Part shown: one piece after another, positions 2,308 through 63,788 of the stretch | Position numbering within the stretch: the stretch's first letter is position 1 | Layout of the letters: every line of letters starts with the position of its first letter | Source of the DNA: a virus | Lineage: Duplodnaviria > Caudoviricetes | IMG/VR virus record: IMGVR_UViG_3300042271_000539 | Location: 1 to 64,000 of that record | Length of the DNA stretch: 64,000 nt | Reading direction: 5' to 3' (one strand) | Translations under genes and position numbers: made by a program | Notes under the pieces: generated by a model | Seen by the model: the letters and a program-made list of their open reading frames with translations, nothing else | Told to the model about the DNA's origin: nothing | Databases searched by the model: none

Positions 2308-3375
2308 ATGGGAAAGCATACTTTCAAAGACGAATATGATGACGATGGTAGCCTAGTTTCTATTACAGAATACGACGAACAAGGCAACGAAGTGTACTAT
2401 GAAGATGATGAAGGCTACTGGAACAAAAGAGAATATGACGACAAAGGCAACGAAGTTTACTTTGAAGACAGTGACGGCTTCTGGTACAAACAAGAGTACG
2501 ATTCTCAAGACCATGTGGTCTACTATGAAACCCGTGATGGCTACTGGAGCAAAAGAGAATATGATTCTCAAGGCAACTTAGTTTACTATGAAGATAGTGG
2601 TGGCAGAGTAATAGACAAAAGACCCAAAGAAACACATACAGAATCAATAAAAGGAGAAAGAGAAATGATTAAACTTAGCATTGAAGATGCAATTTATGTT
2701 ACAAGTTGGGCAGCTTATAGTGAAGGCATGAGCCTGTCAAGAGGAGGTTGGTTTAGACTAATAGACCTAGCTAACCTGCCCGAAGAAGAAATTTTTAATG
2801 AGTTTAGAAAAGTTGGTCTAGAACCAAGAGGCAGAGACGAGGAACTGGTAGTTCATGATTATGACGATTACACTGGCATAGGCTACTATGAATTATACGG
2901 AGAAGCTTATCCACTAACTATCGTAAGTCTTTACGAGAAGCTTTTAGAATTAGATGAAGCTGAGCTTATTGCCTTTATCGGTGTAAAAGAGAATAGAGGT
3001 GCTTCTGAGGCTTTAGAGTACTTAGAAGATGGCTATCTAAACAACTATAATTACTATACTGAACAGGGCTTTGATGAATTTCTAGAGGAAATGTTAGAAG
3101 AGCTAGTTCAATATGACCCTGACAAAGCACGTCAATACATTGACGAAGACCAAATCAGAAGAGAGTATGAGATGGACATCTCTTACGATGAAGATACAGG
3201 CGAACCAGAGTATGAAATAGATGACTATATGCTTGAAGAGATTATCCAATCAATGCCTAAAGAGCGTCTATCTTACTATCTAGATGTAGAAGAGTACAAA
3301 CGAGAGGTCCTGATGGATGGTTACTATGAAGAAGTCGAAATTGACGGAGAGACTTATTATATCTACGAGATGTAA
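2308..3375 (+). CDS. ardA: Fusion: ~115-aa YYEDxxG-W-KREYD repeat cassette + ArdA-like antirestriction (DNA mimic) domain
   Basis: Residues 1-119 are ~19-aa repeats. From M120 (2665, own RBS AAGGAG 2651-2656) the motifs IYVTSWAAYSEG..GGW, EELVVHDYD, YIDEDQIRRE and YLDVEEYKRE match ArdA hallmarks (IYVANLGKYNEG..GAW, EEYAIHDYE, YIDYEAYGRD); highly acidic. Confidence 0.6.
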   Translation: MGKHTFKDEYDDDGSLVSITEYDEQGNEVYYEDDEGYWNKREYDDKGNEVYFEDSDGFWYKQEYDSQDHVVYYETRDGYWSKREYDSQGNLVYYEDSGGRVIDKRPKETHTESIKGEREMIKLSIEDAIYVTSWAAYSEGMSLSRGGWFRLIDLANLPEEEIFNEFRKVGLEPRGRDEELVVHDYDDYTGIGYYELYGEAYPLTIVSLYEKLLELDEAELIAFIGVKENRGASEALEYLEDGYLNNYNYYTEQGFDEFLEEMLEELVQYDPDKARQYIDEDQIRREYEMDISYDEDTGEPEYEIDDYMLEEIIQSMPKERLSYYLDVEEYKREVLMDGYYEEVEIDGETYYIYEM

Positions 3376-3836: not shown

Positions 3837-4100
3837 ATGAAAAGAAATGAGTTTGAAAAAGAAAATTTTCAACCACTAAAGCTGATGATTGAGCAGACAG
3901 TCTTTTATTATGGTGTGCATATTAACAACAAAGGCAGAAAAGAATGCCTTCATTGTGGTACCGACTTAACAGACATTTTCGAAAGAGAATCTGATACTGT
4001 TAATTTCTGTTACCATTGTGGTTTTGATTTAATTAGCGCCAGAGTCCCAGAGTTTCCTCGCAGACACTCAGATCCAAATTTTAAAGAAATGGATGACTAA
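3837..4100 (+). CDS. Small zinc-ribbon protein (paralog of 4861-5091)
   Basis: CLHC...CYHC pairs; RBS AAGGAG. Confidence 0.6.
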   Translation: MKRNEFEKENFQPLKLMIEQTVFYYGVHINNKGRKECLHCGTDLTDIFERESDTVNFCYHCGFDLISARVPEFPRRHSDPNFKEMDD

Positions 4101-5556: not shown

Positions 5557-7647
5557 GTGTCATATATGAATGTTACAGATATACTAGAGGCGATAGATGA
5601 AGAGTTCGGTCAAGAAGAAGTTTACATGTGGTCTACGTACATATTACCTAACGGACACTTCCTAAACCCAGACAAGAGTGATTTTTCTACCCCAGCTTAC
5701 GAACATGAAGACTTTCATTATTGGATAGGGGTTACTTTTGGAATTACTGGGTTTAAGGCACTAGATGACTATTGTATCAAGATGAATGTTACTTACCCTT
5801 ATATTCATCTACCAAACAACAGACTGACACCAAAACAATTAAAAGCTATTAGAAAGATTATAGACCGTAAGGACCTATTTGAATATGCTTTTGAGGACAT
5901 AGCCGAAATAACAGATAGCGTTAGATTTAACTCGGATATATCAGAACCTCTATTAGTTTCAACAGAAAATGACAGTATAGTCTTTGATTTATCTATACAC
6001 AACGCTGATGATATCATTAAAACTATAACACGATCATATTATACAGGTAAGTTTTTATTTGAGTCTTCTAATAGTACAATGGCAAAGCATACTTTTGAAG
6101 ACGAATATGACGACGAAGGCAACTTAGTTTCTGTTACAGAGTTTGATGAACGTGGCAACGGGGTCTCCTTTGAAGATAGTAGTGGCTATTGGTGGAAAAG
6201 AGAGTATGACTCTAAAGGCAACGAAATCTACTTTGAAAACAGCAATGGCTTTTGGCGCAAAAGCGTGTTTGATGCGCAAGGTCACCAAGTCTATTATGAA
6301 ACCAGTAACGGTTACTGGCGTAAAAGCGAGTACGATAAACGAGGTGACTTAGTTTACTTTGAAGACAGTGATGGCACTGTGATAGACCAAAGACTTAAAG
6401 AAACACAAACCGAAGCCTCTAAAGGCCACACCTTTAAGGACGAGTTTGATGAAGATGGCAACCTATTTTCTACTTCAGAGTTTGATGAACAAGGCAACGA
6501 AGTCTACTATGAAGACACTAGAGGTTACTGGTACAAACAAGAGTATGATGAACGAGGTAATATGACCTACTTTGAAGATGATGAGGGCCGTTGGTTTAGA
6601 AAAGAATATGATTCTCGAGACAACCAAATCTACTATGAAAATGATAGTGGTTTCTGGAGCAAAAGAGAATATGACGAACAAGGTAGATTAGTTTACTATG
6701 AAGATAGTATGGGTGAATTTATGGACAATAGACCTGATTCCGTACAAACAGAGTCAACAAAAGGGAATTACTTCAAAGAGGTTTATGATGAACAAGGTGA
6801 CCTATTCTCTATTTCAGAATACGACTCTCAGGACCGCCAAATTTCTTTTGAAAACGCAGAGGGCCAATGGTGGAAAAGAGAGTTTGACGAGCAAGGTAAC
6901 GAAATCTATTATGAGAGTAGTTACGGTAATAAAACCACAAGAGAGTACAGTTCTGAAGGAGTTACAATATACAGAGAAGAGAATGATTACTGGGAAAAGG
7001 AGTATCTTGACCCTCAAGGCAATGGAATTTACTATGAAAATAGTAATGGCAATTGGTACAAAAGAGAATATAACTCTCAAGGAATTGAAATCTACTATGA
7101 AGACAGTAAGGGCAATGTGCTAGACAAAAGGCCCAAAGAAGCACACACGGAATCAATAAAAGGAGAAAGAAAAATGAAACCTACAGATTACGAGAAATTT
7201 ATTACGAAACAGTTTAAACGAGTATTAGACTATATAGATGTTGAATCACTGCGTATGGAGTTAAATAACGCAGGAGATATGGATACGTACTCCTATTACT
7301 TAGGGGCACTTGATATGACAGAAGTACTACAAAAATTATGGGACCTTGCTAGTAAAGCTGATACAGACACTGAGTGTTTCTTACAGGGTGCTGTAGAGAT
7401 ACTTTTCTTCCTTGATAATGAAGAGGACTTAATGACTTTAGAAGATTTTGTTACTCCTGCTGACTTAGAAGATGACCTTAGTGGAGAAGGTAGCCCATGT
7501 CAGCACGACTTACATTTAGGTGTGCAGTACGCCCTTGAGTTTGTTCAGAGACTTGTTGATTACAATACTAGTGGCACAGATCTTTCAATTGGAGATTATC
7601 TAGAAGGCATCCTAGCTGTGCAAGGACAGCTTCAGAGGTTTATATGA
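5557..7647 (+). CDS. Multi-module protein: N-terminal domain + three tandem YYEDxxG-W-KREYD repeat cassettes + C-terminal helical domain with internal RBS/ATG (7174)
   Basis: Cassettes between 6079 and ~7165 are homologous to the N-terminus of 2308-3375; linkers TEASKG, TESTKG, TESIKG. Confidence 0.65.
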   Translation: MSYMNVTDILEAIDEEFGQEEVYMWSTYILPNGHFLNPDKSDFSTPAYEHEDFHYWIGVTFGITGFKALDDYCIKMNVTYPYIHLPNNRLTPKQLKAIRKIIDRKDLFEYAFEDIAEITDSVRFNSDISEPLLVSTENDSIVFDLSIHNADDIIKTITRSYYTGKFLFESSNSTMAKHTFEDEYDDEGNLVSVTEFDERGNGVSFEDSSGYWWKREYDSKGNEIYFENSNGFWRKSVFDAQGHQVYYETSNGYWRKSEYDKRGDLVYFEDSDGTVIDQRLKETQTEASKGHTFKDEFDEDGNLFSTSEFDEQGNEVYYEDTRGYWYKQEYDERGNMTYFEDDEGRWFRKEYDSRDNQIYYENDSGFWSKREYDEQGRLVYYEDSMGEFMDNRPDSVQTESTKGNYFKEVYDEQGDLFSISEYDSQDRQISFENAEGQWWKREFDEQGNEIYYESSYGNKTTREYSSEGVTIYREENDYWEKEYLDPQGNGIYYENSNGNWYKREYNSQGIEIYYEDSKGNVLDKRPKEAHTESIKGERKMKPTDYEKFITKQFKRVLDYIDVESLRMELNNAGDMDTYSYYLGALDMTEVLQKLWDLASKADTDTECFLQGAVEILFFLDNEEDLMTLEDFVTPADLEDDLSGEGSPCQHDLHLGVQYALEFVQRLVDYNTSGTDLSIGDYLEGILAVQGQLQRFI

Positions 7648-9646: not shown

Positions 9647-10834
9647 ATGGATTACATAGAGTTTATAAGTTCAGAGCAATCGTGGTTAGACTTCTTAGAC
9701 TATGAGGAGTCTAAAGGAGATTACAAAGACACAAAGCTAATAGAAACAATCACTAAAATATTAGCACATAAGGCTTATATCAAGTTTAATCAACAATATC
9801 TTAGCGATTTTAAATTACCAATAAAAAGAGAATTAAAGAAACACAATACCAAAAAGACTAGAACTGTTTATGTATATACGGGCTATGGCATGGCTTTACT
9901 AAAACTAACAGCTTTCTATATTCTCCAAAAGTACAATGATAAGTTTTGTGAGAATTCTATAGCCTATACAAGAGGCAGATCCGTAAAGACAGCATTTACT
10001 TTATTAAAGTCTTATAAATTAAAACCGAATGACACAGTCTATAAGAATGATTTTACAGATTACTTTAATTCAATTCGTGTAGACAGACTAGAAGATAAAG
10101 TAAGGATTTTTCTAGAGGACGACCAAGAGCTGTGTGACTTTATCATCCAAATTCTTAAAGAACCCAGAGTAAAATCTAGAGGCGCTATTATTGAGGTACC
10201 TACTAAAGGGGTTATGGCAGGCTCCCCCATATCAGGAATTCTTGCAAACATCTACATGGATGATATAGACAAGCAGATGTTAACTAAAGGTTACAAATAT
10301 ATCCGCTATGCTGATGACACTCTTATTGTAGGAGAAGAGGCATTAGAGTACTTTAAGTCACAGATAAAACTTCTAGATATAAAACTCAACCCTAAAAAAG
10401 AAGAAATCATGAACATAAGAGATGGCATTGACTTCCTGGGCTTTACTTTTAAGAGGGGTACTATAGACATCTCTGAAAAAGCTAAAGACAAAATGAAGTC
10501 TAGACTAAAGCGCAGAGCCAAGTGGTATAGACAGTGGATGCTAAAAAGAAATGTAAAAAAGGAAGTAGCTATAAGAGATTATATTAAGAAGATAAACTAT
10601 AAACTGTTTTCTGACCAAGACGACTCTATTAACTGGTCCAGATGGTATTTACCAAACATAAATACTAAAAAGACACTGAAGTATCTAGACAATTATTTTG
10701 TTGACTGTATCAGATATTTAGATAGTGGCACATGGACAAAAGGTAAGAGTTTTTATAGACTTTCTTATAAAGACATCAAAAAACTAGGTTTCAGAAGCTT
10801 AGTTAATGAATATTATAAGAGAAGTGTGTGGTAA
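9647..10834 (+). CDS. Reverse transcriptase (stand-alone, non-DGR, non-canonical-retron class)
   Basis: RT motifs: KNDFTDYFNSI (motif 3), GVMAGSPISGILANIYM (motif 4), YIRYADD (catalytic), FLGFTF (motif 7); RBS GAGGAG. Confidence 0.92.
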   Translation: MDYIEFISSEQSWLDFLDYEESKGDYKDTKLIETITKILAHKAYIKFNQQYLSDFKLPIKRELKKHNTKKTRTVYVYTGYGMALLKLTAFYILQKYNDKFCENSIAYTRGRSVKTAFTLLKSYKLKPNDTVYKNDFTDYFNSIRVDRLEDKVRIFLEDDQELCDFIIQILKEPRVKSRGAIIEVPTKGVMAGSPISGILANIYMDDIDKQMLTKGYKYIRYADDTLIVGEEALEYFKSQIKLLDIKLNPKKEEIMNIRDGIDFLGFTFKRGTIDISEKAKDKMKSRLKRRAKWYRQWMLKRNVKKEVAIRDYIKKINYKLFSDQDDSINWSRWYLPNINTKKTLKYLDNYFVDCIRYLDSGTWTKGKSFYRLSYKDIKKLGFRSLVNEYYKRSVW

Positions 10835-10844
10835 CCTAAGGAGC

Positions 10845-10885
10845 AACACACACTCATACTATATAATATAGTGTAAGGGTATATA
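10845..10885 (+). promoter_or_regulatory. Promoter-like block with TATAATATAG (-10, no canonical -35) upstream of RT-associated ncRNA
   Basis: TATAAT at 10862-10867; 41-bp block identical to 43777-43817. Confidence 0.6.
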
Positions 10886-11081
10886 ACATAGTACTAGTAT
10901 TTACTAGACTATTTAGGTAAGTCAACAGTCCTATAGACTCCAAAGCGTTCCTAAGCGCCTATAGAGACAATTGACAAATACAATAGGAGAGGAAGCTTTC
11001 ACTTCCGTTAGCTGTCCTCTCAGATCGGGACGATGCTCCTGTGTCGATCAGCGTCCCGATCTCAGTCAACAACTTATATAC
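10873..11081 (+). ncRNA. RT-associated structured ncRNA, copy 1
   Basis: Closing stem GTATATAA/TTATATAC (10879-86/11074-81); hairpins 10888-10912, 10921-10975, 10987-11021, 11022-11062; 66-nt block 10912-10977 identical to 43835-43900. Confidence 0.8.
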
Positions 11082-11117
11082 TAAAGAAATAAAAATTACA
11101 AGAGAAAGAGGTAAAAC

Positions 11118-11342
11118 ATGGAGAATATTAAACAGGCCAGAGGTGTAGTAAAAAGTTTTAATCCTATAAAAGGATACGGCTTTATATCTTGCACTGAATC
11201 TCTTGATGAAGATATCTATGTCCACTTCTCTCAAATTCTTATGGATGGCAAGAAAACTTTAAACGTTGGTGACGAAGTTGAGTTCCTGTACAAAGAGTTT
11301 GAGGACAGAGGTCTTAGAGCGTATCAAGTTAGAAAGATTTAA
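11118..11342 (+). CDS. csp: Cold-shock domain protein
   Basis: [15 protein letters not shown] (RNP1) and DIYVHFSQI (RNP2) motifs, 74 aa. Confidence 0.9.
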
Positions 11343-11367
11343 AGAATAATTTGAAAGGTGGTATTTT

Positions 11368-11595
11368 ATGGACCACATATATATCTACTATGTAGATGAT
11401 TATGAAAAAACCGTGTCCTTTGAGGTACAGCCATATCCTATCTATGAGAATAGTTATCACGATGAGCTAGACTTTGAAAGTTTCCAGGAATTTATTACGG
11501 AGTACGCTGAGAATGCTTATGCCTATAGAGTTCATATAGACAGAGAAGATCAGGACAAGCTCGATAACTATTTTGGTTATGACATATTACACTGA
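11368..11595 (+). CDS. Hypothetical acidic protein
   Basis: 75-aa ORF, RBS AAAGGTGG. Confidence 0.55.
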   Translation: MDHIYIYYVDDYEKTVSFEVQPYPIYENSYHDELDFESFQEFITEYAENAYAYRVHIDREDQDKLDNYFGYDILH

Positions 11596-11603
11596 GGTAT
11601 TTT

Positions 11604-11993
11604 ATGCCTAACTTTAAAGACAACATTTACGAAGGTCAGTGGGTCGTCGAGTATATAGAAGAGATAACTCCATTTGAAGATGACATCCCTGAGCGCTGGC
11701 TCAATACATTAGTTAGACCAAACACCTTTGAGCTTAAGAGTATAGACATTAATGAGGTACTGAATGATCCATCTTTCAAGGACTTTTTTGACTTTTACTC
11801 ACCACGATATAAGTACTCAGAATTTGATGGGTTTTATGTTGATGCAGACTATAACCCAGTCGACTTTGTATCTGAGGAGACACTATACTCTCCAATAGTT
11901 ATAGTTGATGGTAGTATCATTGACGGCTACTCGAGAGCAGCAGAATTACTTCTAGCTGGTGCAAGTACCATTGAGGCTTTTGTTAACATTTAG
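11604..11993 (+). CDS. ParB/sulfiredoxin-like small protein (paralog of 4093-4500)
   Basis: YSPRY..SEFDGFY...PIVIVDGSIIDGYSR aligns with 4093 ORF. Confidence 0.45.
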   Translation: MPNFKDNIYEGQWVVEYIEEITPFEDDIPERWLNTLVRPNTFELKSIDINEVLNDPSFKDFFDFYSPRYKYSEFDGFYVDADYNPVDFVSEETLYSPIVIVDGSIIDGYSRAAELLLAGASTIEAFVNI

Positions 11994-12033
11994 GGTGATT
12001 CTAACTTAGCACTATGCAAATAGAGGTGAAAAT

Positions 12034-12285
12034 ATGAAGGGTGGCTTAGCAGATAAAATGTCTATAGAGGACATTGCTAAAAAACACAACATACCAGTTG
12101 AAACTATTATTGAACAAGTAGAGATTGGTTATGAAATAGAATTTGAACACACAGATGACGGGTCTATCGCTTTAGAAATAGCTTTAGACCACTTAGTCGA
12201 AATTCCTGATTACTATACAAGACTAGTAAAAATGGAAGAAGAGGCTAAAGAAAATTTAAGGGAACAGGAGAATGATTATGAGTAA
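12034..12285 (+). CDS. DUF5661-like small phage protein
   Basis: KGGLAD..., EIEFEHTDD...EIALDHL.E.PDYYTRL pattern. Confidence 0.6.
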   Translation: MKGGLADKMSIEDIAKKHNIPVETIIEQVEIGYEIEFEHTDDGSIALEIALDHLVEIPDYYTRLVKMEEEAKENLREQENDYE

Positions 12286-13993
12286 AAAACTAATCAAGAA
12301 TAGACAGTTTAACGTTGGTATTGTTGAATCATACAAAGCTAAATCAGAGGACAAGGGGCACGGAATTGACAGCCCAATCCTAGGAGAATTTTTTGTTAAG
12401 GGTATGACTGTAGAGAATACTATAAGTCAAAATAGAACTAAGTATCCTACTGAGGCATGGTCTCAGAGAAACGCTTTTGGTTCTGGAGGAAAATTCCTCG
12501 ATGAGAGTGGTAAGCTAAAACCTGCGACCTTATTTGGAAGCGTAGACCACCCTACAGATGACAGAGCAGAGCTTTTACTATCTGAAGCAGCTATTGCTTG
12601 GTATGATGTTAAAAGAAACGATGATGGATCTTGGGATGGTAAAGCTGATGTTTTAAACAATCCACAAGGTAAAATTGTCAAGACTTTCTTAGAGTATGCT
12701 AAAGAGCGTGGGGGTTCTGGTTTACTTGGCGTATCTTCTAGAGCTTTAGGAGAAACAAGACTAGAGGAATCATCTGAAGGTCAATATGAGTCTATTGTTC
12801 CTGAGAGTTTTGAACTAATGTCATTTGACTTCGTTTACAATCCATCTTTCCAAACAGCAACAGCCGTTTTAAACGAGTCAGCTAAGGGTGGAAGAAAAAC
12901 TTTAACTGAGTCAATCAAAGCCTTAGCTAAAGAAGATGAAGAGCACGCTGATGTCTACAATAAAGTTATTGAAGATTTAGAACAAAGATCCAAAGAAAAG
13001 TCTACTAAAAAAGAAAGCAAGACTGTAGACCAAGCTAAGAAAGAATATTATAAAACTTTAAGGGCTAAAGAGAAAGACTTATACAATGCGCTATATGACT
13101 TAGAAGAAATGTCTGAAGAAGACTTCAAGAAAGAATACGGACAAGTCGACAAAGCTAAAGTAGAAAAGAATATGAAAGCTGAGTACGAAGAAGTCTTAGC
13201 AGAAATTCAAAAGCTAAAAGAACCTAAAGTTGAAAATAGAAAAGAGGACAACATGCCTAAAGAAAAAATAAATGAAAAGACAGTTATAGAAGCTAAAATG
13301 TATAATATTGAATTACCTAAAGATAAGGCTAAGAAATTAGCTCAAGCTTTAAAGGATGAGAACATTTACTATGAACCATCAAGTGCTGGTGACTTAATTC
13401 ATTTTGAAATTAAATGTGATGAAACTCAAAAAGAAGCTATCGAAAAATTCTTACAGACTATTAGCGAATCTGTAGAAATCATTAAAGAATCTACTTACGT
13501 AATCAATGAAGAGAATAAAACCATAGGTGACTTCGTTGATGAAGCCAAAGAAAAAGAAAAAGACTTGTTTGGTGAAGAAGACGAAGACTCTGACGAAGAC
13601 TCTGAGGGTGAAGAAGACGACGAAGACCTTGAAGAACTAGAAGCTGAAGAAGACTCTGAGGAAGACGAAGACCTTGATGGTGAAGAAGAGGAAGACCTTG
13701 AAGAAGAGGAAGAACTATCAGTCGAAGATCAAATCAAAGAACTGAGAGACCTAGTACAACAATTAGTCGACTTCTTAATGCCTGTAGAAGATCCTGAAGC
13801 AGAACTTCTAGATGATGACTTAGAGGGTGAACTATCTGAGGAAGAAGATGACTTAGAATTAGAAGATTCCGAAGGCGAAGAAGACTCTGAAGAAGACGGT
13901 GAACTTCTTGGTCTAGAAGAACTTACCGATGAGGACCTTGACGATTTAACTGATGAGGAACTAGAAGCACTTCTAGATAACATAGAGGACTAA
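12272..13993 (+). CDS. Prohead protease (T4 gp21-like) fused to acidic scaffold/core domain
   Basis: QNRTKYP, GSVDHP, GVSSRALG, FDFVYNPS motifs; D/E-rich C-terminal third; shortly upstream of MCP. Confidence 0.8.
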   Translation: MIMSKKLIKNRQFNVGIVESYKAKSEDKGHGIDSPILGEFFVKGMTVENTISQNRTKYPTEAWSQRNAFGSGGKFLDESGKLKPATLFGSVDHPTDDRAELLLSEAAIAWYDVKRNDDGSWDGKADVLNNPQGKIVKTFLEYAKERGGSGLLGVSSRALGETRLEESSEGQYESIVPESFELMSFDFVYNPSFQTATAVLNESAKGGRKTLTESIKALAKEDEEHADVYNKVIEDLEQRSKEKSTKKESKTVDQAKKEYYKTLRAKEKDLYNALYDLEEMSEEDFKKEYGQVDKAKVEKNMKAEYEEVLAEIQKLKEPKVENRKEDNMPKEKINEKTVIEAKMYNIELPKDKAKKLAQALKDENIYYEPSSAGDLIHFEIKCDETQKEAIEKFLQTISESVEIIKESTYVINEENKTIGDFVDEAKEKEKDLFGEEDEDSDEDSEGEEDDEDLEELEAEEDSEEDEDLDGEEEEDLEEEEELSVEDQIKELRDLVQQLVDFLMPVEDPEAELLDDDLEGELSEEEDDLELEDSEGEEDSEEDGELLGLEELTDEDLDDLTDEELEALLDNIED

Positions 13994-14820: not shown

Positions 14821-14854
14821 AACCCTTAAACAAACAGGGTTACATATAATATAG
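14821..14854 (+). promoter_or_regulatory. Hairpin + TATAATATAG promoter-like element upstream of MCP
   Basis: AACCCT/AGGGTT inverted repeat 14821-14841 then TATAATATAG 14845-14854; no -35. Confidence 0.45.
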
Positions 14855-30640: not shown

Positions 30641-32680
30641 GTGTTTATTTTGGGTAATATAAGGAACTTAAAAGTAAATGATATAACTATAGAAGAATTG
30701 AATATAGATGCTCAAGTTATAGACACACTCTATATAGATGGCGTTATATATTTCCTAACGTTGGTGGAGCCTAGTATTTTAAACTTCAGTAAAGAATATA
30801 TGTCTATATCATTTAGATTAAGAAATAATGACTTGAATCCTACCAACGTCTATTATGAGGTTGATGAACCATTACCCAACACAGAGTTTGTTACCTTGGA
30901 CTCTGAAGAAGTATCAAGTTTAATAACAATATCGGATATCTCTTTAAATGTGGATCACACTCTATACGCTAGAAGTTTTAAGCTAGGACAATTCTCTGAT
31001 ATAGTTACTACTGTAGACTTTAGAATAGTAGAGATTAGTTTAGACATACTAAAGACTTTACTTCTTACTTTAGAGTCTACAACAGACTTTAGAACACCGA
31101 AGAACTTAGACATTGCTAAAGACTTAAGTTTAACTTTAGACTCAACATATAAATTAACTGAGCATTTAGACATACTAAAGACACTTTGGTTAGCTTTAGA
31201 CTCAACTACAGACTTTAGAACGCCTAAGAACTTAGACATACTAAAGACTTTACTTCTTACTTTAGAGTCTACAACAGACTTTAGAACACCGAAGAACTTA
31301 GACATTGCTAAGGATCTAGGTCTGGCTTTAGATTCTACATATAAACTTACAGAACATTTAGACATACTAAAGACTTTACTTCTTACTTTAGAGTCTACAA
31401 CAGACTTTAGAACGCCTGAGAATTTGGACATACTAAAGACTTTACTGCTTACTTTAACCTCTACAACAGACTTTAGAACTCCTGAGAACTTAGACATTAC
31501 TAAGGATCTAGGTCTGACTTTAGACTCAACATATAAATTAACTGAGCATTTAGACATCTTAAAGACTTTACTGATTACTTTAACCTCTACAACAGACTTT
31601 AGAACACCGAAGAACTTAGACATACTAAAGACACTTTGGTTAACTTTAGACTCAACTACAGACTTTAGAACACCTAAAGATATAGACATACTAAAGACTA
31701 TTAACTTATCGCTAGATGCTGTAACAAGATTTTCTCAATACTTTGATTTAGACATACTAAAGACACTTTGGTTAACTTTAGAGGCTACTACTGATTTTTC
31801 AACACCAGATAATCTGGAGATATTAAAAACTTTATTATTAACTTTAGAGTCTACAACAGACTTTAGAACTCCTAAAGGTCTAGATATAAACAAAACGCTC
31901 GGAATAGCTTTAAATGCAACTTTTGTTCTAGAAGATATATACTTAGTTACATATTACTTAAATGGTGGTGCAAATCACGCCTCAAACCCAGCAACATTTT
32001 ATGCTGATGACTTACCTATTGCTCTAGGAGACCCTACGAAGACAGGCTACACCTTCAATGATTGGTACACAGAGGCAGGGTTTACTAACGCAATAAGTAG
32101 CCTTACAGAAGAACAAAACTACTCATTATATGCTAAGTTTACAGCTAATACATATACAGTAGTCTTTAATGCTAATGGTGGTTCTGGGACAATGTCAAAC
32201 CAGAGTTTCACTTATGATGTTTATCAAAATCTTAGAACTAATACCTTTACTAGATCTGGTTATGCCTTTATAGGTTGGGCGACAAGCCCTTCAGGAAGTG
32301 TAGTATATGACGATGCTGAATATGTTAGAAATTTAGCAACTGGTGGTACTGTTAACCTTTATGCTAAGTGGGAGTTACTAAGAACAACCACAACACCGAA
32401 TATTACAGACTATGGTGTTAGATTAATAACAGGAGATTTAGGTAACTTTAACCAATTCTACTGGAAAGTTCAAAATCTAGACTCTCTATCAGCAGAAATA
32501 TTCAGTGAGCATACTGATACAGATCCAGATATAAGTAGAGGGGTAATAGCTTCTAATGCTAAGACTGGGGAAATTACCTACACTACAAGTATAAGCACTA
32601 CGTCAATTACAGTTTATGCTAAGGCTAAAGCTGGCGTTCACAATATGTCTGCTATAGATAGTCAAGTTATAAGTTTATAA
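30641..32680 (+). CDS. Tail-associated protein with 14 tandem 20-22-aa repeats and two Listeria-Bacteroides (InlB-B/Flg_new-like) repeats
   Basis: LDILKTLLLTLESTTDFRTPKN-type repeats; YLVTYYLNGG...PTKTGYTFNDWY...YAKF and YTVVFNANGG...RSGYAFIGW...YAKW. Confidence 0.7.
   Translation: MFILGNIRNLKVNDITIEELNIDAQVIDTLYIDGVIYFLTLVEPSILNFSKEYMSISFRLRNNDLNPTNVYYEVDEPLPNTEFVTLDSEEVSSLITISDISLNVDHTLYARSFKLGQFSDIVTTVDFRIVEISLDILKTLLLTLESTTDFRTPKNLDIAKDLSLTLDSTYKLTEHLDILKTLWLALDSTTDFRTPKNLDILKTLLLTLESTTDFRTPKNLDIAKDLGLALDSTYKLTEHLDILKTLLLTLESTTDFRTPENLDILKTLLLTLTSTTDFRTPENLDITKDLGLTLDSTYKLTEHLDILKTLLITLTSTTDFRTPKNLDILKTLWLTLDSTTDFRTPKDIDILKTINLSLDAVTRFSQYFDLDILKTLWLTLEATTDFSTPDNLEILKTLLLTLESTTDFRTPKGLDINKTLGIALNATFVLEDIYLVTYYLNGGANHASNPATFYADDLPIALGDPTKTGYTFNDWYTEAGFTNAISSLTEEQNYSLYAKFTANTYTVVFNANGGSGTMSNQSFTYDVYQNLRTNTFTRSGYAFIGWATSPSGSVVYDDAEYVRNLATGGTVNLYAKWELLRTTTTPNITDYGVRLITGDLGNFNQFYWKVQNLDSLSAEIFSEHTDTDPDISRGVIASNAKTGEITYTTSISTTSITVYAKAKAGVHNMSAIDSQVISL
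31040..31936 (+). repeat. Coding tandem repeat: 66-bp (A) and 60-bp (B) units in a higher-order A-B-A pattern
   Basis: Unit order ABAABAABAACAAD read from translation. Confidence 0.9.
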
Positions 32681-43755: not shown

Positions 43756-43783
43756 GTGTGTTCTGGTGGCCACCAGAACACAC
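43756..43783. repeat. Perfect 28-bp palindrome GTGTGTTCTGGTGGCCACCAGAACACAC
   Basis: Self-complementary, read directly from sequence. Confidence 0.95.
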
Positions 43784-43817
43784 ACTCATACTATATAATA
43801 TAGTGTAAGGGTATATA
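43777..43817 (+). promoter_or_regulatory. Promoter-like block with TATAATATAG upstream of ncRNA copy 2
   Basis: Identical to 10845-10885; TATAAT 43794-43799. Confidence 0.6.
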
Positions 43818-43992
43818 GCAAAATGCAAGTGCGTTTTAGGTAAGTCAACAGTCCTATAGACTCCAAAGCGTTCCTAAGCGCCTATAGAGACAATTGACAA
43901 CAGTGAAGCTTATCACTTCCGTTAAGCTTCACATGAGGTTCGGATCTGGCACCCAAATCCGAACCTCTAGTCAATACTGTGCATACCCTTAC
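43805..43992 (+). ncRNA. RT-associated structured ncRNA, copy 2 (orphan)
   Basis: Closing stem GTAAGGGTAT/ATACCCTTAC (43805-14/43983-92); hairpins 43820-37, 43844-98, 43903-32, 43935-67; identical 66-nt core with copy 1. Confidence 0.8.
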
Positions 43993-44035
43993 CTTATATT
44001 GAAATAAATCATGTGATTTAGAAGAGAGGAATGAA

Positions 44036-44746
44036 ATGGCAGTAATACCAAAGCTAATGACTAAAGATCAGCTTAAACAGTATATTAAAGATGAGTTAAA
44101 TGCTGGTATTGTCAACTTAGAGTTATCTGATACAATTATAGATAGAAACCTAAACAGAGCATTATACCTATCTTCTGACTACTTTAATTATACTACTTAT
44201 AAGACAATTAGCATTGAAAAGACTACAGGATCTGGGGGTTACTATGACCTCAGCAATCTCGCTGATGATGGTCTTATACCAACTATTGTAGCAGTTTATC
44301 CAACAAAGAATGTGCTAAATATTGACGCAGCTTTACTTGGTTTAGGATCTGTATTTATAAATACAGTATCGGCACTAAATCCACAATTGAATGCCTATGC
44401 AAATATGTTAAATAAACTATCACAATTGGAGAGTATCCTAGGAAGAAATGCTAGAGTAATAGGTGATAAACTTTATGTTGATCATTACTTCGCAGATGTA
44501 ACAATTGAATATATACCACAGACAGTTCAGATAGAGAATATTCATGAGGGTGCTTGGATCAACTTTTTGATTGATTATACCGTAGCACTATGCAAAAGAC
44601 AGATAGCCCAATCTAGAGGTAAATATGTAATAGAGTCTAACCCAGCATCAATGAACGCTGCGGAATTATTAGAGCAAGCAAATTCAGAATTAATTAGATT
44701 AGAAGAAGACTTACAAACTAAAGGGGTACTTTTAGCAAGTAGATAA
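44036..44746 (+). CDS. Neck / head-completion protein (gp13-like)
   Basis: LKQYIKDELN...NLELSD.II...AL N-terminus and DY.VAL.K...AQ.RGKY C-terminus. Confidence 0.6.
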   Translation: MAVIPKLMTKDQLKQYIKDELNAGIVNLELSDTIIDRNLNRALYLSSDYFNYTTYKTISIEKTTGSGGYYDLSNLADDGLIPTIVAVYPTKNVLNIDAALLGLGSVFINTVSALNPQLNAYANMLNKLSQLESILGRNARVIGDKLYVDHYFADVTIEYIPQTVQIENIHEGAWINFLIDYTVALCKRQIAQSRGKYVIESNPASMNAAELLEQANSELIRLEEDLQTKGVLLASR

Positions 44747-50750: not shown

Positions 50751-50784
50751 AAGACTGTATACTATTATGCAGTCTTTTTATTTT
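50751..50784 (+). terminator. Intrinsic terminator
   Basis: AAGACTGTAT/ATGCAGTCTT 10-bp stem followed by T-rich tract. Confidence 0.7.
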
Positions 50785-50787
50785 CTG

Positions 50788-50817
50788 TTGCAATTTTCCA
50801 AAGTCATGTATTATAGT
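50788..50817 (+). promoter_or_regulatory. Sigma70-like promoter TTGCAA-18-TATAGT
   Basis: Upstream of RBS AGGAGG for the HU gene. Confidence 0.6.
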
Positions 50818-57508: not shown

Positions 57509-58054
57509 ATGAGTTTAATGAGCGTAAGTAAAGATGGTAAAGGGGATAACTATGAGACCCCTAAGTATGTGGTAGAGATACTTTTACCATATCTAAGAAA
57601 AACTAACATAAGAACTATCTGGTGCCCTTTTGATAAGGCCCACAGTGAATACGTTAAAGTTCTTAAAGAAGCTGGATATATTATTATAAACGGACATATA
57701 GATGAGGGTAAAGATTTTTTTGAATACGAACCAGAACAGTATGACGCCATAATTTCTAATCCACCTTTTTCAAAGAAAAATGAGATTCTAGAAAGATGTA
57801 TAACCTTAGGAAAACCTTTTGCGCTACTTTTATCGGCAACGTGTATACAGAGTGCCTCTTTAATTGAAATTATAGCTAAAGCAAAAGACTTTAATTTCAT
57901 TATGTTTAATAAAAGAATTAGTTACAGTGGAGATAGACCACCATTCCCTAGTTGGTATTTTACCAGTCAAATTTTAGACGGGAACAAGTTCTATCTATAT
58001 GAGAGGGATCCTAAGGAATTATTTAGAGAATGGGAACAAAATAAGAGGGGGTAA
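57509..58054 (+). CDS. Adenine-specific methyltransferase-like protein
   Basis: YETP, IWCPFD, DFF, ISNPPFS motifs. Confidence 0.7.
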   Translation: MSLMSVSKDGKGDNYETPKYVVEILLPYLRKTNIRTIWCPFDKAHSEYVKVLKEAGYIIINGHIDEGKDFFEYEPEQYDAIISNPPFSKKNEILERCITLGKPFALLLSATCIQSASLIEIIAKAKDFNFIMFNKRISYSGDRPPFPSWYFTSQILDGNKFYLYERDPKELFREWEQNKRG

Positions 58055-58058
58055 CGTA

Positions 58059-59267
58059 ATGTTTGAGATTGTGGGTAAACATGGTTTAGCCAAAGTATTT
58101 GCTAAAGATTACGATGAATCTGCTATAAAGCAAATATACGGTATTTTAGCTAGTCCAATATCTAAAGATGCCAATGTGAGAATTATGCCAGATTACCACG
58201 CTGGTGCTGGTTGCGTCATAGGAACTACTATGAAGATCGGGGATAAAGTATGCCCAAATATTGTTGGGGTAGATATTGGTTGTGGCGTGTTAACTATCGA
58301 ATTAGGCAAGGCTAGCATTGACTTAGAGAAGCTAGACAACTTTATTAAAAGAGAGATTCCTAGTGGCTTTTCTGTAGGTAATTCTAGCAGTTTCTATACA
58401 GAGTGCCTGGTGAACGAATTAAGATGTTTTAAAGATATTAAAAATTTAGATAGAATTTATAAGTCTATGGGGTCTCTTGGTGGCGGAAATCATTTTATTG
58501 AGATTGATAAGGACGATGATAATAATAAGTATCTCTTAATCCATACTGGATCTAGAAACTTAGGTCTACAGGTTGCCAAGTACTATCAAGACAAAGCAAC
58601 TAAGAAGATATCAGATAGTCTAGGCTCTGCTAGAGAGACTTTAATTCATGAAAATATTAAAGCCTTAAAAGAGGCAGGTCTACAAGAGTCTATACCGAAC
58701 TACTTGAAAAACGAGGCTTCCTTCAAAAGAAGTTGGAGTAAAGACTTAGACTTTCTGGTGGGCCAAGACATGGAAGACTATCTTCATGATATGTTTATTT
58801 GCCAACAATTTGCTAGGGATAACAGACGAAGTATTGCTGAAAAAATATTAGACTTCTTAAATATAAAAGATTACGAATATTTTGATACAATACACAACTA
58901 CATAGATATAAAAAGCAAAATACTACGTAAAGGTGCTGTATCAGCCAAAAGGCAGGAGAGATTAGTTATACCCATTAATATGCGTGACGGTGCTCTGATT
59001 TGTATAGGTAAAGGTAACCCAGAATGGAACTGCTCAGCACCTCATGGGGCTGGTAGAATCCTATCTCGCAGTGAGGCTAAACGACAACTGACTGAAGATC
59101 AGTTTAAGGAGACCATGGATGGTGTTTATACATCAACAGCAACAATAGATACTATTGATGAATCACCAATGGCATATAAACCGATTGAGAATATTATAGG
59201 TAGTATTGGAGACACGGTAGAGATAGTAAAGACAATAAAACCAATTTATAATTTTAAGGCAAACTAA
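58059..59267 (+). CDS. rtcB: RNA ligase RtcB
   Basis: MPDYHAG, VGVDIGCG, GSLGGGNHF, HTGSR, HNY, RKGA, PHGAGR, DESPMAYK; ATG 58059 after GAGGGG. Confidence 0.95.
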   Translation: MFEIVGKHGLAKVFAKDYDESAIKQIYGILASPISKDANVRIMPDYHAGAGCVIGTTMKIGDKVCPNIVGVDIGCGVLTIELGKASIDLEKLDNFIKREIPSGFSVGNSSSFYTECLVNELRCFKDIKNLDRIYKSMGSLGGGNHFIEIDKDDDNNKYLLIHTGSRNLGLQVAKYYQDKATKKISDSLGSARETLIHENIKALKEAGLQESIPNYLKNEASFKRSWSKDLDFLVGQDMEDYLHDMFICQQFARDNRRSIAEKILDFLNIKDYEYFDTIHNYIDIKSKILRKGAVSAKRQERLVIPINMRDGALICIGKGNPEWNCSAPHGAGRILSRSEAKRQLTEDQFKETMDGVYTSTATIDTIDESPMAYKPIENIIGSIGDTVEIVKTIKPIYNFKAN

Positions 59268-63713: not shown

Positions 63714-63788
63714 GGATGTGTAGCTCAATGGCAGAGCGATCGGCTCATAACCGATTGGTTGGGGGTTCAAATCCCTCCAGATCCACCA
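63714..63788 (+). tRNA. tRNA with CAT anticodon (Ile2 or elongator Met)
   Basis: Cloverleaf, ATCGG-CTCATAA-CCGAT, TTCAAAT T-loop, ACCA end; one acceptor mismatch. Confidence 0.85.

Follow-up and report, generated by a model that had tools for sequence, protein, structure and literature searches.

Structured RNA units at operon starts in a phage lineage carrying a UG26-type reverse transcriptase

In retrons, the msr-msd RNA is encoded upstream of the reverse transcriptase (RT) gene and is conserved with it, and to our knowledge every described RT-RNA system likewise has its RNA encoded beside the enzyme. The UG26 RTs (class 2 UG/Abi) are a group that has been catalogued but, as far as we know, never tested. 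A different kind of phage RNA is represented by lambda nutL and nutR and HK022 putL and putR, the promoter-proximal antitermination RNAs of the lambdoid phages. Among RTs of phages, those of the UG27 group copy the central variable hairpin of arrayed 135-167-nt ncRNA units into cDNA of 50-100 nt (bioRxiv preprint of September 2026, 10.64898/2026.09.22.753630). In UG26, a COG2852-like partner protein is present in only 9 of 35 members (Mestre et al., 2022; PMC9226505).

The window analysed here, 64,000 nt in length, covers the opening 64 kb of an IMG/VR virus record of 82 kb (IMGVR_UViG_3300042271_000539), classed there as a provirus about 90% complete. The plus strand holds all genes of this phage, and its gene content (Table 1) looks like that of a myophage. 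The genome is called G000 below where it has to be told apart from two other RT-bearing ones, G005 (91.7 kb, complete, with terminal repeats) and G006 (86.5 kb, 94% complete); at the level of single loci, L083 is this phage and L012 a fragment of the same phage. DNA and protein searches found no close relative among cultured phages, the top matches being at 31% identity for the RT and 28% for the capsid protein.

The RT matches the PADLOC RT_UG26 profile with E = 3e-98 (residues 1-392 on profile positions 1-395 of 398), the runners-up being UG17 at 3e-30 and then UG27 at 2e-27. Its catalytic RYADD occupies residues 220-224, with motif 4 (GVMAGSPISGILANIY) upstream of it; homologues number 68, at 32-95% identity, and Y221, D223 and D224 are invariant across the 15 that were compared. 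A motif check found neither the retron motifs NAxxH and VTG nor the DGR SQ motif, and there is no intron context. A first-pass annotation, made from the letters of the sequence, had reported an intact RT with a YADD site and had set it apart from retron, DGR and intron enzymes; both points are supported, and the group to which the enzyme belongs is UG26.

Bacterial UG26 systems are organized differently around the enzyme. In two homologues at 33-37% identity (L266 and L267), the order is a 166-179-aa partner gene, a closed structured RNA, and the RT, the RNA, which directly precedes the RT, being Rfam RT-5 (RF03026; 75 bits where 45.7 is the threshold). The phage RT has about the same length as these, the YxDD site, and a match to the UG26 profile from end to end, but lacks both companions. 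RT-5 was not found in the whole window at the gathering threshold, nor near the RT at E up to 10, and the gap 5' of the RT measures 16 nt (9-40 nt in the seven orthologue loci that include the upstream ORF, apart from L009). With the L267 partner (COG2852/YcjD-like) as query, there was no match in the phage genome, and the 180-aa ORF upstream of the RT is unrelated to that protein. The conserved neighbor of the phage RT is instead a cold-shock-domain gene (csp) inside the head-gene block. The phage clade has lost the RT-5 RNA, and its RT is a new, phage-borne, stripped-down member of UG26. What gives it interest is that such an enzyme, without RT-5 or partner, is here a core gene of a small lineage of myophage type (25 loci), with the capsid gene about 5 kb further downstream on each of its contigs.

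The remaining features listed by the first-pass annotation, a TATAAT block, a terminal inverted repeat, and the hairpins P2, P3, P4 and P5, are all present, and all lie in the 283 nt between the RT and csp (Table 1). Of the hairpin that precedes the promoter-like block, the 3' arm (AACACACAC) is kept in all copies of the element; loop and 5' arm differ in the corresponding hairpins at 43756-43783 and in L109. The block that follows resembles a promoter by consensus. Its TATAATATAGTGTAAGG core recurs at 59.6, 70.3 and 78.5 kb, there 3' of a TTGCAT -35 box, and the RNA is predicted to start near G10873. A closing helix, P1, would pair GTATATAA (10879-10886) with TTATATAC (11074-11081); in this copy it is weak, and its register differs. 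The predicted fold as a whole (-72.5 kcal/mol, z = -6.2) was matched by none of 200 shuffles. Copy 1 sits in the predicted 5' leader of csp, with no terminator or promoter before that gene.

Table 1. Coordinates of features discussed in the text (positions in the 64,000-nt window).
Feature	Position	Strand	Basis or remark
Reverse transcriptase, 395 aa, UG26 group (class 2 UG/Abi)	9647-10834	+	PADLOC RT_UG26 profile, Pfam RVT_1, motif check
Hairpin 5' of promoter block	10823-10854	+	Read from sequence; 5' arm is the last RT codons
Promoter-like block without -35 box: ACACACACTCATAC, TATAAT (10862-10867), ATAG	10845-10872	+	Consensus
Structured RNA unit, copy 1: P1, P2, P3, P4, P5, AGTCAA (11064-11069)	10873-11083	+	Fold, covariance model E = 6e-24, covariation
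P2	10888-10912	+	
P3, 19-bp hairpin with 8-nt one-sided bulge	10921-10975	+	Helix invariant in 4/4 instances; bulge varies
P4, loop TTCACTTCCGTT	~10986-11021	+	
P5	11022-11062	+	
Core common with looser unit family: P4, variable hairpin P5, AGTCAA-N-CA	10986-11075	+	Motif order as in G005/G006 units
Cold-shock-domain gene csp, 74 aa	11118-11342	+	phrog_729, E = 3e-12
Major head protein	14915	+	
Tail sheath	19408	+	
Large terminase	38766	+	
Perfect 14-bp hairpin, then promoter-like block of copy 2 (TATAAT 43794-43799)	43756-43804	+	
Structured RNA unit, copy 2	43805-43994	+	Fold z = -9.1; seed of models R1 and R3
236-aa gene, head of 44.0-50.7 kb block	44036-44746	+	Orthologues in G005/G006 also behind units
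DNA polymerase	51-55 kb	+	
RtcB	58 kb	+	

The first-pass annotation had also spoken of two copies, and the second is found 33 kb away from the RT, where it leads a block of genes that a plus-strand terminator closes at 50751-50776. Its P1 joins GUAAGGGUAU with AUACCCUUAC and begins at the predicted +1, an exact coincidence that holds in copies 2 and 3. The two copies in the window have 41 nt of the promoter-like block in common, then an identical stretch of 66 nt that comprises J2/3 and P3 (10912-10977 and 43835-43900), and further the P4 loop CACTTCCGTT and the AGTCAA 3' of P5. P2, the P4 stem and P5 (43935-43967 in copy 2) differ in sequence between them, with pairing kept.

Two further instances (L109 and L228), both from one other phage, were recovered with nhmmer, with a covariance model and by pattern matching that allowed gaps; across IMG/VR, pattern scans of either sort, exact or gapped, returned only these and L083. 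In that phage the unit precedes, in order, a 257-aa gene, a GIY-YIG homing endonuclease gene and the portal gene. The 19-kb record shares with G000 only a repeat protein, a short tandem-repeat stretch, and the cassette of promoter plus RNA (87% identical over 163 nt). On the covariance model, pairing is kept in 93.7% of the paired cells of the four instances, compared with 82% in shuffles and 22-43% with slid partners, in an alignment that was fitted to the structure. Two-sided changes affect 18 pairs (10 of 11 in P5, 5 of 10 in P4, 3 of 7 in P2), and the 19 pairs of P3 are all invariant. Because the four instances amount to only three really distinct sequences, and the alignment follows the model, this covariation support is good but thin. 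Judged by fold and covariation, the RNA of about 210 bases is a real structured element, as the first-pass annotation had taken it to be, and its shape appears to be kept by compensating changes. It has no counterpart in Rfam 15, which at the gathering threshold recognized only a tRNA in the window, and which around either copy, at E up to 10, gave only chance hits of the miRNA type.

The first-pass annotation had gone on to couple this RNA to the RT in the manner of a retron, with P3 as recognition element for the enzyme and P5 as template for a short hairpin cDNA. There are real likenesses to msr-msd RNA: terminal inverted repeats close a multi-hairpin RNA, a long hairpin lies just inside the 3' arm, and an RT gene is adjacent. 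The analogy fails, however, on both RT motifs and gene order. The phage enzyme is without NAxxH and VTG and scores far better as UG26, and its RNA lies 3' of the enzyme's gene, within what would be the leader of a different gene, and is not conserved with the enzyme.

This last point comes from 15 IMG/VR loci of RT orthologues (31-100% identity). The order RT-csp is kept in 13 of them, and the element is missing from 13; apart from this phage, only L012 has it. Eleven of the loci lacking it run from the RT through 100-170 nt with a promoter-like block (TATATTATAT..GTAAGG) directly to csp, with no structure of about 200 nt. Three covariance models were available: R1 from one sequence (copy 2), R2 from four sequences, and R3 for the core, with copy 2 as seed. 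A search of related phages by such a model had been proposed along with the first-pass annotation. R1 and R2 had no match in G003-G010, G005 and G006 included, or in the other RT-bearing records searched. No units were found within the 3-kb flanks of 12 RT loci, nor in six RT-bearing records of 19-35 kb (by a pattern scan on five of them and a scan for structured gaps). With 13 orthologue loci, these six records, and two complete or nearly complete genomes all without the element, the proposed coupling is not borne out, RT homologues that lack the flanking structure being one of the outcomes which the first-pass annotation itself had named as speaking against it. Since the orthologue loci run RT, promoter-like block, csp with nothing between, copy 1 is an insertion between the csp promoter of the lineage and csp. 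By this comparison the RNA travels with promoter and operon starts and not with the RT; a role as template is therefore possible but unproven.

RNAs of a looser kind are present in the two other RT-bearing genomes. Scanning of structured intergenic regions and repeats in G005 yielded at least seven units, each with a 5' hairpin with covarying arms, a hairpin with the loop UAUCACUAACGCU or a variant of it, a long variable hairpin, and RUCAA-N-CAC. Some are in tandem (three at rc 13.5-14.0 kb, two at 55.9-56.3 kb); one is immediately 5' of the RT start, another 1.3 kb downstream of the RT, so that the RT gene itself is among the several genes led by units. In G006, three units form an array that follows a terminator and the promoter of the lineage, and one more stands alone elsewhere; the loop reads CGUUUCACUAACGYU and the 3' end AAUCAAACAC. 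The 3' half of the element in the window has the same parts in the same order: the P4 loop UUCACUUCCGUU, P5, and AGUCAA. What the looser relatives share with it is the P4 loop (UUCACU..CGYU) and AGTCAA, while P3 is confined to the G000-type subfamily, which argues against P3 as the site recognized by the RT.

Position provides the strongest link between the two types of unit. Orthologues of the 236-aa gene (tblastn, 50% and 67% identity), for which a protein search found no match among cultured phages, have units immediately upstream in each case: one in G000, three in tandem in G005, and one in G006. Model R3 does reach two known G005/G006 units among its top six matches, but only at E of 2-3, so that homology of the two types is not shown statistically. 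The element in the window may be a divergent subtype of the unit family, one with P3 and a closing helix, although this is not secured statistically. The structured leader of the G005 RT was considered as a homologue and rejected at the level of the models. In either form, the units make up a previously undescribed family of folded RNAs that evolve fast and stand at the starts of operons in the same phages.

How are such units best understood? Our tentative preference, held with somewhat less than even confidence, is that the element belongs to a lineage-specific family of promoter-proximal structured RNA units, and is a leader module independent of the RT. The following lines of evidence lead to it. 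Copy 1 interrupts the run from a conserved promoter-like block to csp; the 41-nt promoter block precedes every one of the four instances; and neither a terminator nor a second promoter parts copies 1 and 2 from the next gene. The L109/L228 unit precedes its 257-aa gene in an otherwise unrelated phage, while in G000, G005 and G006 units precede the orthologue of the 236-aa gene. In G005 the RT is only one of several genes that units lead, and in G006 the array follows a terminator and promoter. Finally, RT neighborhoods hold no unit in 7 of the 9 lineages with enough sequence. That the RT adjoins copy 1 would be explained by the csp promoter, which sits at that place across the whole lineage.

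As a leader module, each unit would be transcribed from a promoter without a -35 box (TATAATATAG in this phage) as the first ~200 nt of an operon transcript, the operons concerned being, in this phage, the one of csp, the portal-like gene and the head block, and the one that the 236-aa gene opens. A putative conserved trans-acting factor could then dock on the invariant parts, which are the P4 loop UUCACU..CGYU, RUCAA and, for this subfamily, P3, and might act in cis on the nascent transcript or on the transcribing polymerase. The outcome may be elongation competence, 5'-end protection or processing, with the variable hairpins serving presumably as scaffolding. If this is right, it would point to an as yet unknown mode of operon control, in a phage that depends on host RNAP and whose promoters have no -35 box. 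Neither sigma-70 region 2 nor a T7-type RNA polymerase turned up in profile searches of the genome, the polymerase search being one that had no valid control.

The nut and put RNAs offer a partial parallel. They too occur in several copies per genome, each just 3' of a promoter (here a consensus one) that heads a long operon, and they too combine hairpins with a short conserved linear motif, the copies differing in sequence while the fold is kept. The phage units are, however, much larger, at about 200 nt with a closing helix in addition to four hairpins, and in relatives they are arrayed in tandem; they have no detected homology to nut or put RNAs, no known binding factor, and no excess of terminators downstream. 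Intrinsic terminators and terminator-like sites downstream of the units are no commoner than in shuffles, and these scans, which cover Rho-independent sites, give no support for classical antitermination. Other observations also weigh against a leader module. Cis-regulatory leaders do not usually come in tandem and in varying copy number, an arrangement typical of RT-linked ncRNA arrays such as those of UG27; in the L109/L228 phage the unit is parted from the next gene by a sigma-70-like promoter with an extended -10, as would suit a separate ncRNA gene; no protein stands out as a candidate for binding the units; and the link from the G000 type to G005 and G006 consists of short motifs, their order and their position, not being significant in covariance searches. 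Because the RT is a core gene of the lineage, for which neither an RT-less relative nor a cultured one was found, there is no RT-less relative to act as control.

The second possibility is that the units are RNA partners or templates of the UG26-like RT, in cis or in trans: the enzyme would recognize the P4 loop and RUCAA and copy P5 into a short hairpin cDNA, which is the idea of the first-pass annotation with another recognition element in place of P3. On the analysis made here this is rather unlikely, though some facts speak for it. Class 2 UG RTs commonly use a nearby RNA, and bacterial UG26 enzymes have RT-5, which the phage clade has lost. Units are present in all three complete or nearly complete RT-bearing genomes, in which no other structured RNA was noticed to recur. 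They may stand alone or in tandem, in varying copy number, with variable hairpins flanked by short conserved motifs, as in UG27 arrays, and a unit adjoins the RT in G000 (on its 3' side) and in G005 (on its 5' side). Against this, the nearest unit in G006 is 10 kb from the RT, most lineages have none near the enzyme, and the conserved site for a unit is upstream of the 236-aa gene, not of the RT. The units have no similarity to RT-5, and a G000-type element is found in a phage fragment with different head genes that has no RT on its 19 kb (a record only 21% complete).

The UG27 cDNA result means that a mechanism of the kind proposed in the first-pass annotation does exist, in a neighboring RT group, and the comparison is a close one in several respects: a phage-borne class 2 UG RT, structured units of ~135-200 nt that are single or tandem, short conserved motifs with freely varying hairpins, and copy numbers that change between relatives. 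The differences are that the RT here is UG26 (3e-98 versus 2e-27), that no three-protein module was seen, and that the UG27 start motif AUC-N7-UANAG is absent from the phage units (four instances and the G005 RT leader). UG27 arrays are, moreover, beside the RT, whereas the phage units are scattered at operon starts, mostly away from it; cDNA copies are known from the UG27 side of this comparison. A specific and likewise doubtful form of the idea is that the scattered units are trans-acting templates of the UG26-like RT, RT-5 having been swapped for promoter-driven units at the heads of operons, whose variable hairpins would give short hairpin cDNAs during infection. Templates of this kind would extend the UG27 layout of "one enzyme, many RNAs" to a second RT group and to dispersed RNAs, and would make this the first RT-RNA system with its RNAs dispersed through the genome instead of beside the enzyme. 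Overall, the observations of the first-pass annotation are confirmed, and its interpretation is partly supported.

Another improbable reading is that the units, cut from the leader or transcribed by themselves, are stable stand-alone ncRNAs with a trans role independent of the RT, as a protein sponge or as a decoy for a host factor or defence protein, P1 setting the mature ends. P1 does make each unit a closed domain by bringing its predicted 5' end together with its 3' end, each unit is duplicated along with its own promoter-like block, tandem arrays occur, and the second promoter 3' of the L109/L228 unit would be in keeping with this. But no unit ends in a terminator, no Rfam family matches, P1 is not robust in copy 1, and a search of the phage's genome for antisense targets of at least 13 nt, for the variable hairpins and for P3, found none. 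Finally, it is very unlikely that the conserved blocks act as DNA (a mobile promoter cassette, like the T4 promoter/stem-loop cassettes, an operator, or a recombination site), with the RNA fold incidental: promoter block and P3 are 87-100% identical between loci and between otherwise unrelated phages whose flanks share nothing, and P3 is built of palindromic pieces such as CTATAG and GTCAA/TTGAC, but P2, P4 and P5 have changes on both sides that compensate each other, which shows that pairing within a single strand is selected for, all copies are on the coding strand and 3' of the promoter-like block, and GC skew has no inflection at either copy.

Several searches for further members of the family gave candidates that were set aside. 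A first metagenome scan for the element found nothing, and the matches of a second were to an unrelated AT-rich repeat family. Chance accounts for the 118 matches to TTGACAA..CACTTCCGTT and for 28 matches to a pattern of the P3 bulge, L109 excepted. Matches to TCCTATAGA..CCTATAGAGA proved to be mostly one conserved protein-coding sequence, whose reading frame (..SYRPNF..YPYREEM..) might, at a guess, be that of a late sigma factor.

The reverse transcriptase (RT) gene is followed by a cold-shock-domain gene (74 aa) and then by a gene for a 573-aa acidic protein, portal-like as judged by its position (window 9647-13993; loci L003-L016). This order is kept, directly 5' of the head genes, in 11-13 of the 15 RT orthologue loci. 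One possibility is that the real partner of the RT is its constant neighbour, the single-strand-binding OB-fold protein encoded by the cold-shock-domain gene. The C-terminal ends of the orthologues differ from that of the window RT, whose last codons are encoded by a hairpin arm, so the insertion at this site has reshaped this C-terminus.

In the cassettes of two bacterial MAGs, the layout is a partner protein of 166-179 aa, then the Rfam RNA RT-5, then the RT; the two partners are 34% identical, and a 12-16-bp outer closing helix of the RNA extends past the Rfam model. In G005, a complete, RT-bearing relative of 91.7 kb, a tmRNA gene and a c-di-GMP-I riboswitch both lie less than 4 kb from the RT.

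Features of the phage genome, its relative G005, a second phage with the structured RNA unit (L109) and bacterial RT loci (L266, L267)
Feature	Location	Detail
63-nt (21-aa) repeat	window 2308-2668, 6079-7177	14 copies, spread over two genes
Final RT codons (S V W stop)	window 10823-10834	5' arm of hairpin ahead of promoter block
TTCTAACTTAGCACTATGC(A/T)AA motif	window 11976-12020; L109 3520-3560, minus strand	
66/126-nt tandem repeats	window 30972-31920	within 679-aa ORF 30641-32680
Sigma-70-like promoter family	window 50789, 54271, 59554, 62140; genome 70.3 and 78.5 kb	
RtcB-type RNA ligase gene	window 57999-59267	phrog_1075, E = 9e-128
tRNA gene	window 63714-63785	
tmRNA gene	L009 6392-6747 (G005)	99.9 bits
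c-di-GMP-I riboswitch	L009 933-1011 (G005)	50.2 bits
UG26 cassettes	L266 2846-4721; L267 2814-4718	two bacterial MAGs

The sigma-70-like promoters have the consensus T(T)GCA(T/A)TTTT, a spacer and TATAAT (TATAGT at 50789), continued in several (59.6, 70.3 and 78.5 kb) by ATAGTGTA(A/G)GG. They have their -10 and start region in common with the -35-less promoters of both RNA copies; the capsid-gene promoter (14821-14854), also -35-less, has the same -10 and start region. The TTCTAACTTAGCACTATGC(A/T)AA motif is intergenic in the window and recurs just 3' of the RNA unit of the second phage (L109/L228), where it reads TTGTTG, 17 nt and TGCTAAAAT, an extended -10 promoter.

Among the few other features common to these two phages is a homologous repeat protein (68% identity), the 21-aa repeat being of the type ..GYW.KREYD..GN.VYYE... 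A stretch related to the tandem repeats of the 679-aa ORF occurs in record G001 (3876-4020). Large gene-poor gaps lie at 62-66 kb, and may hold further RNA genes.
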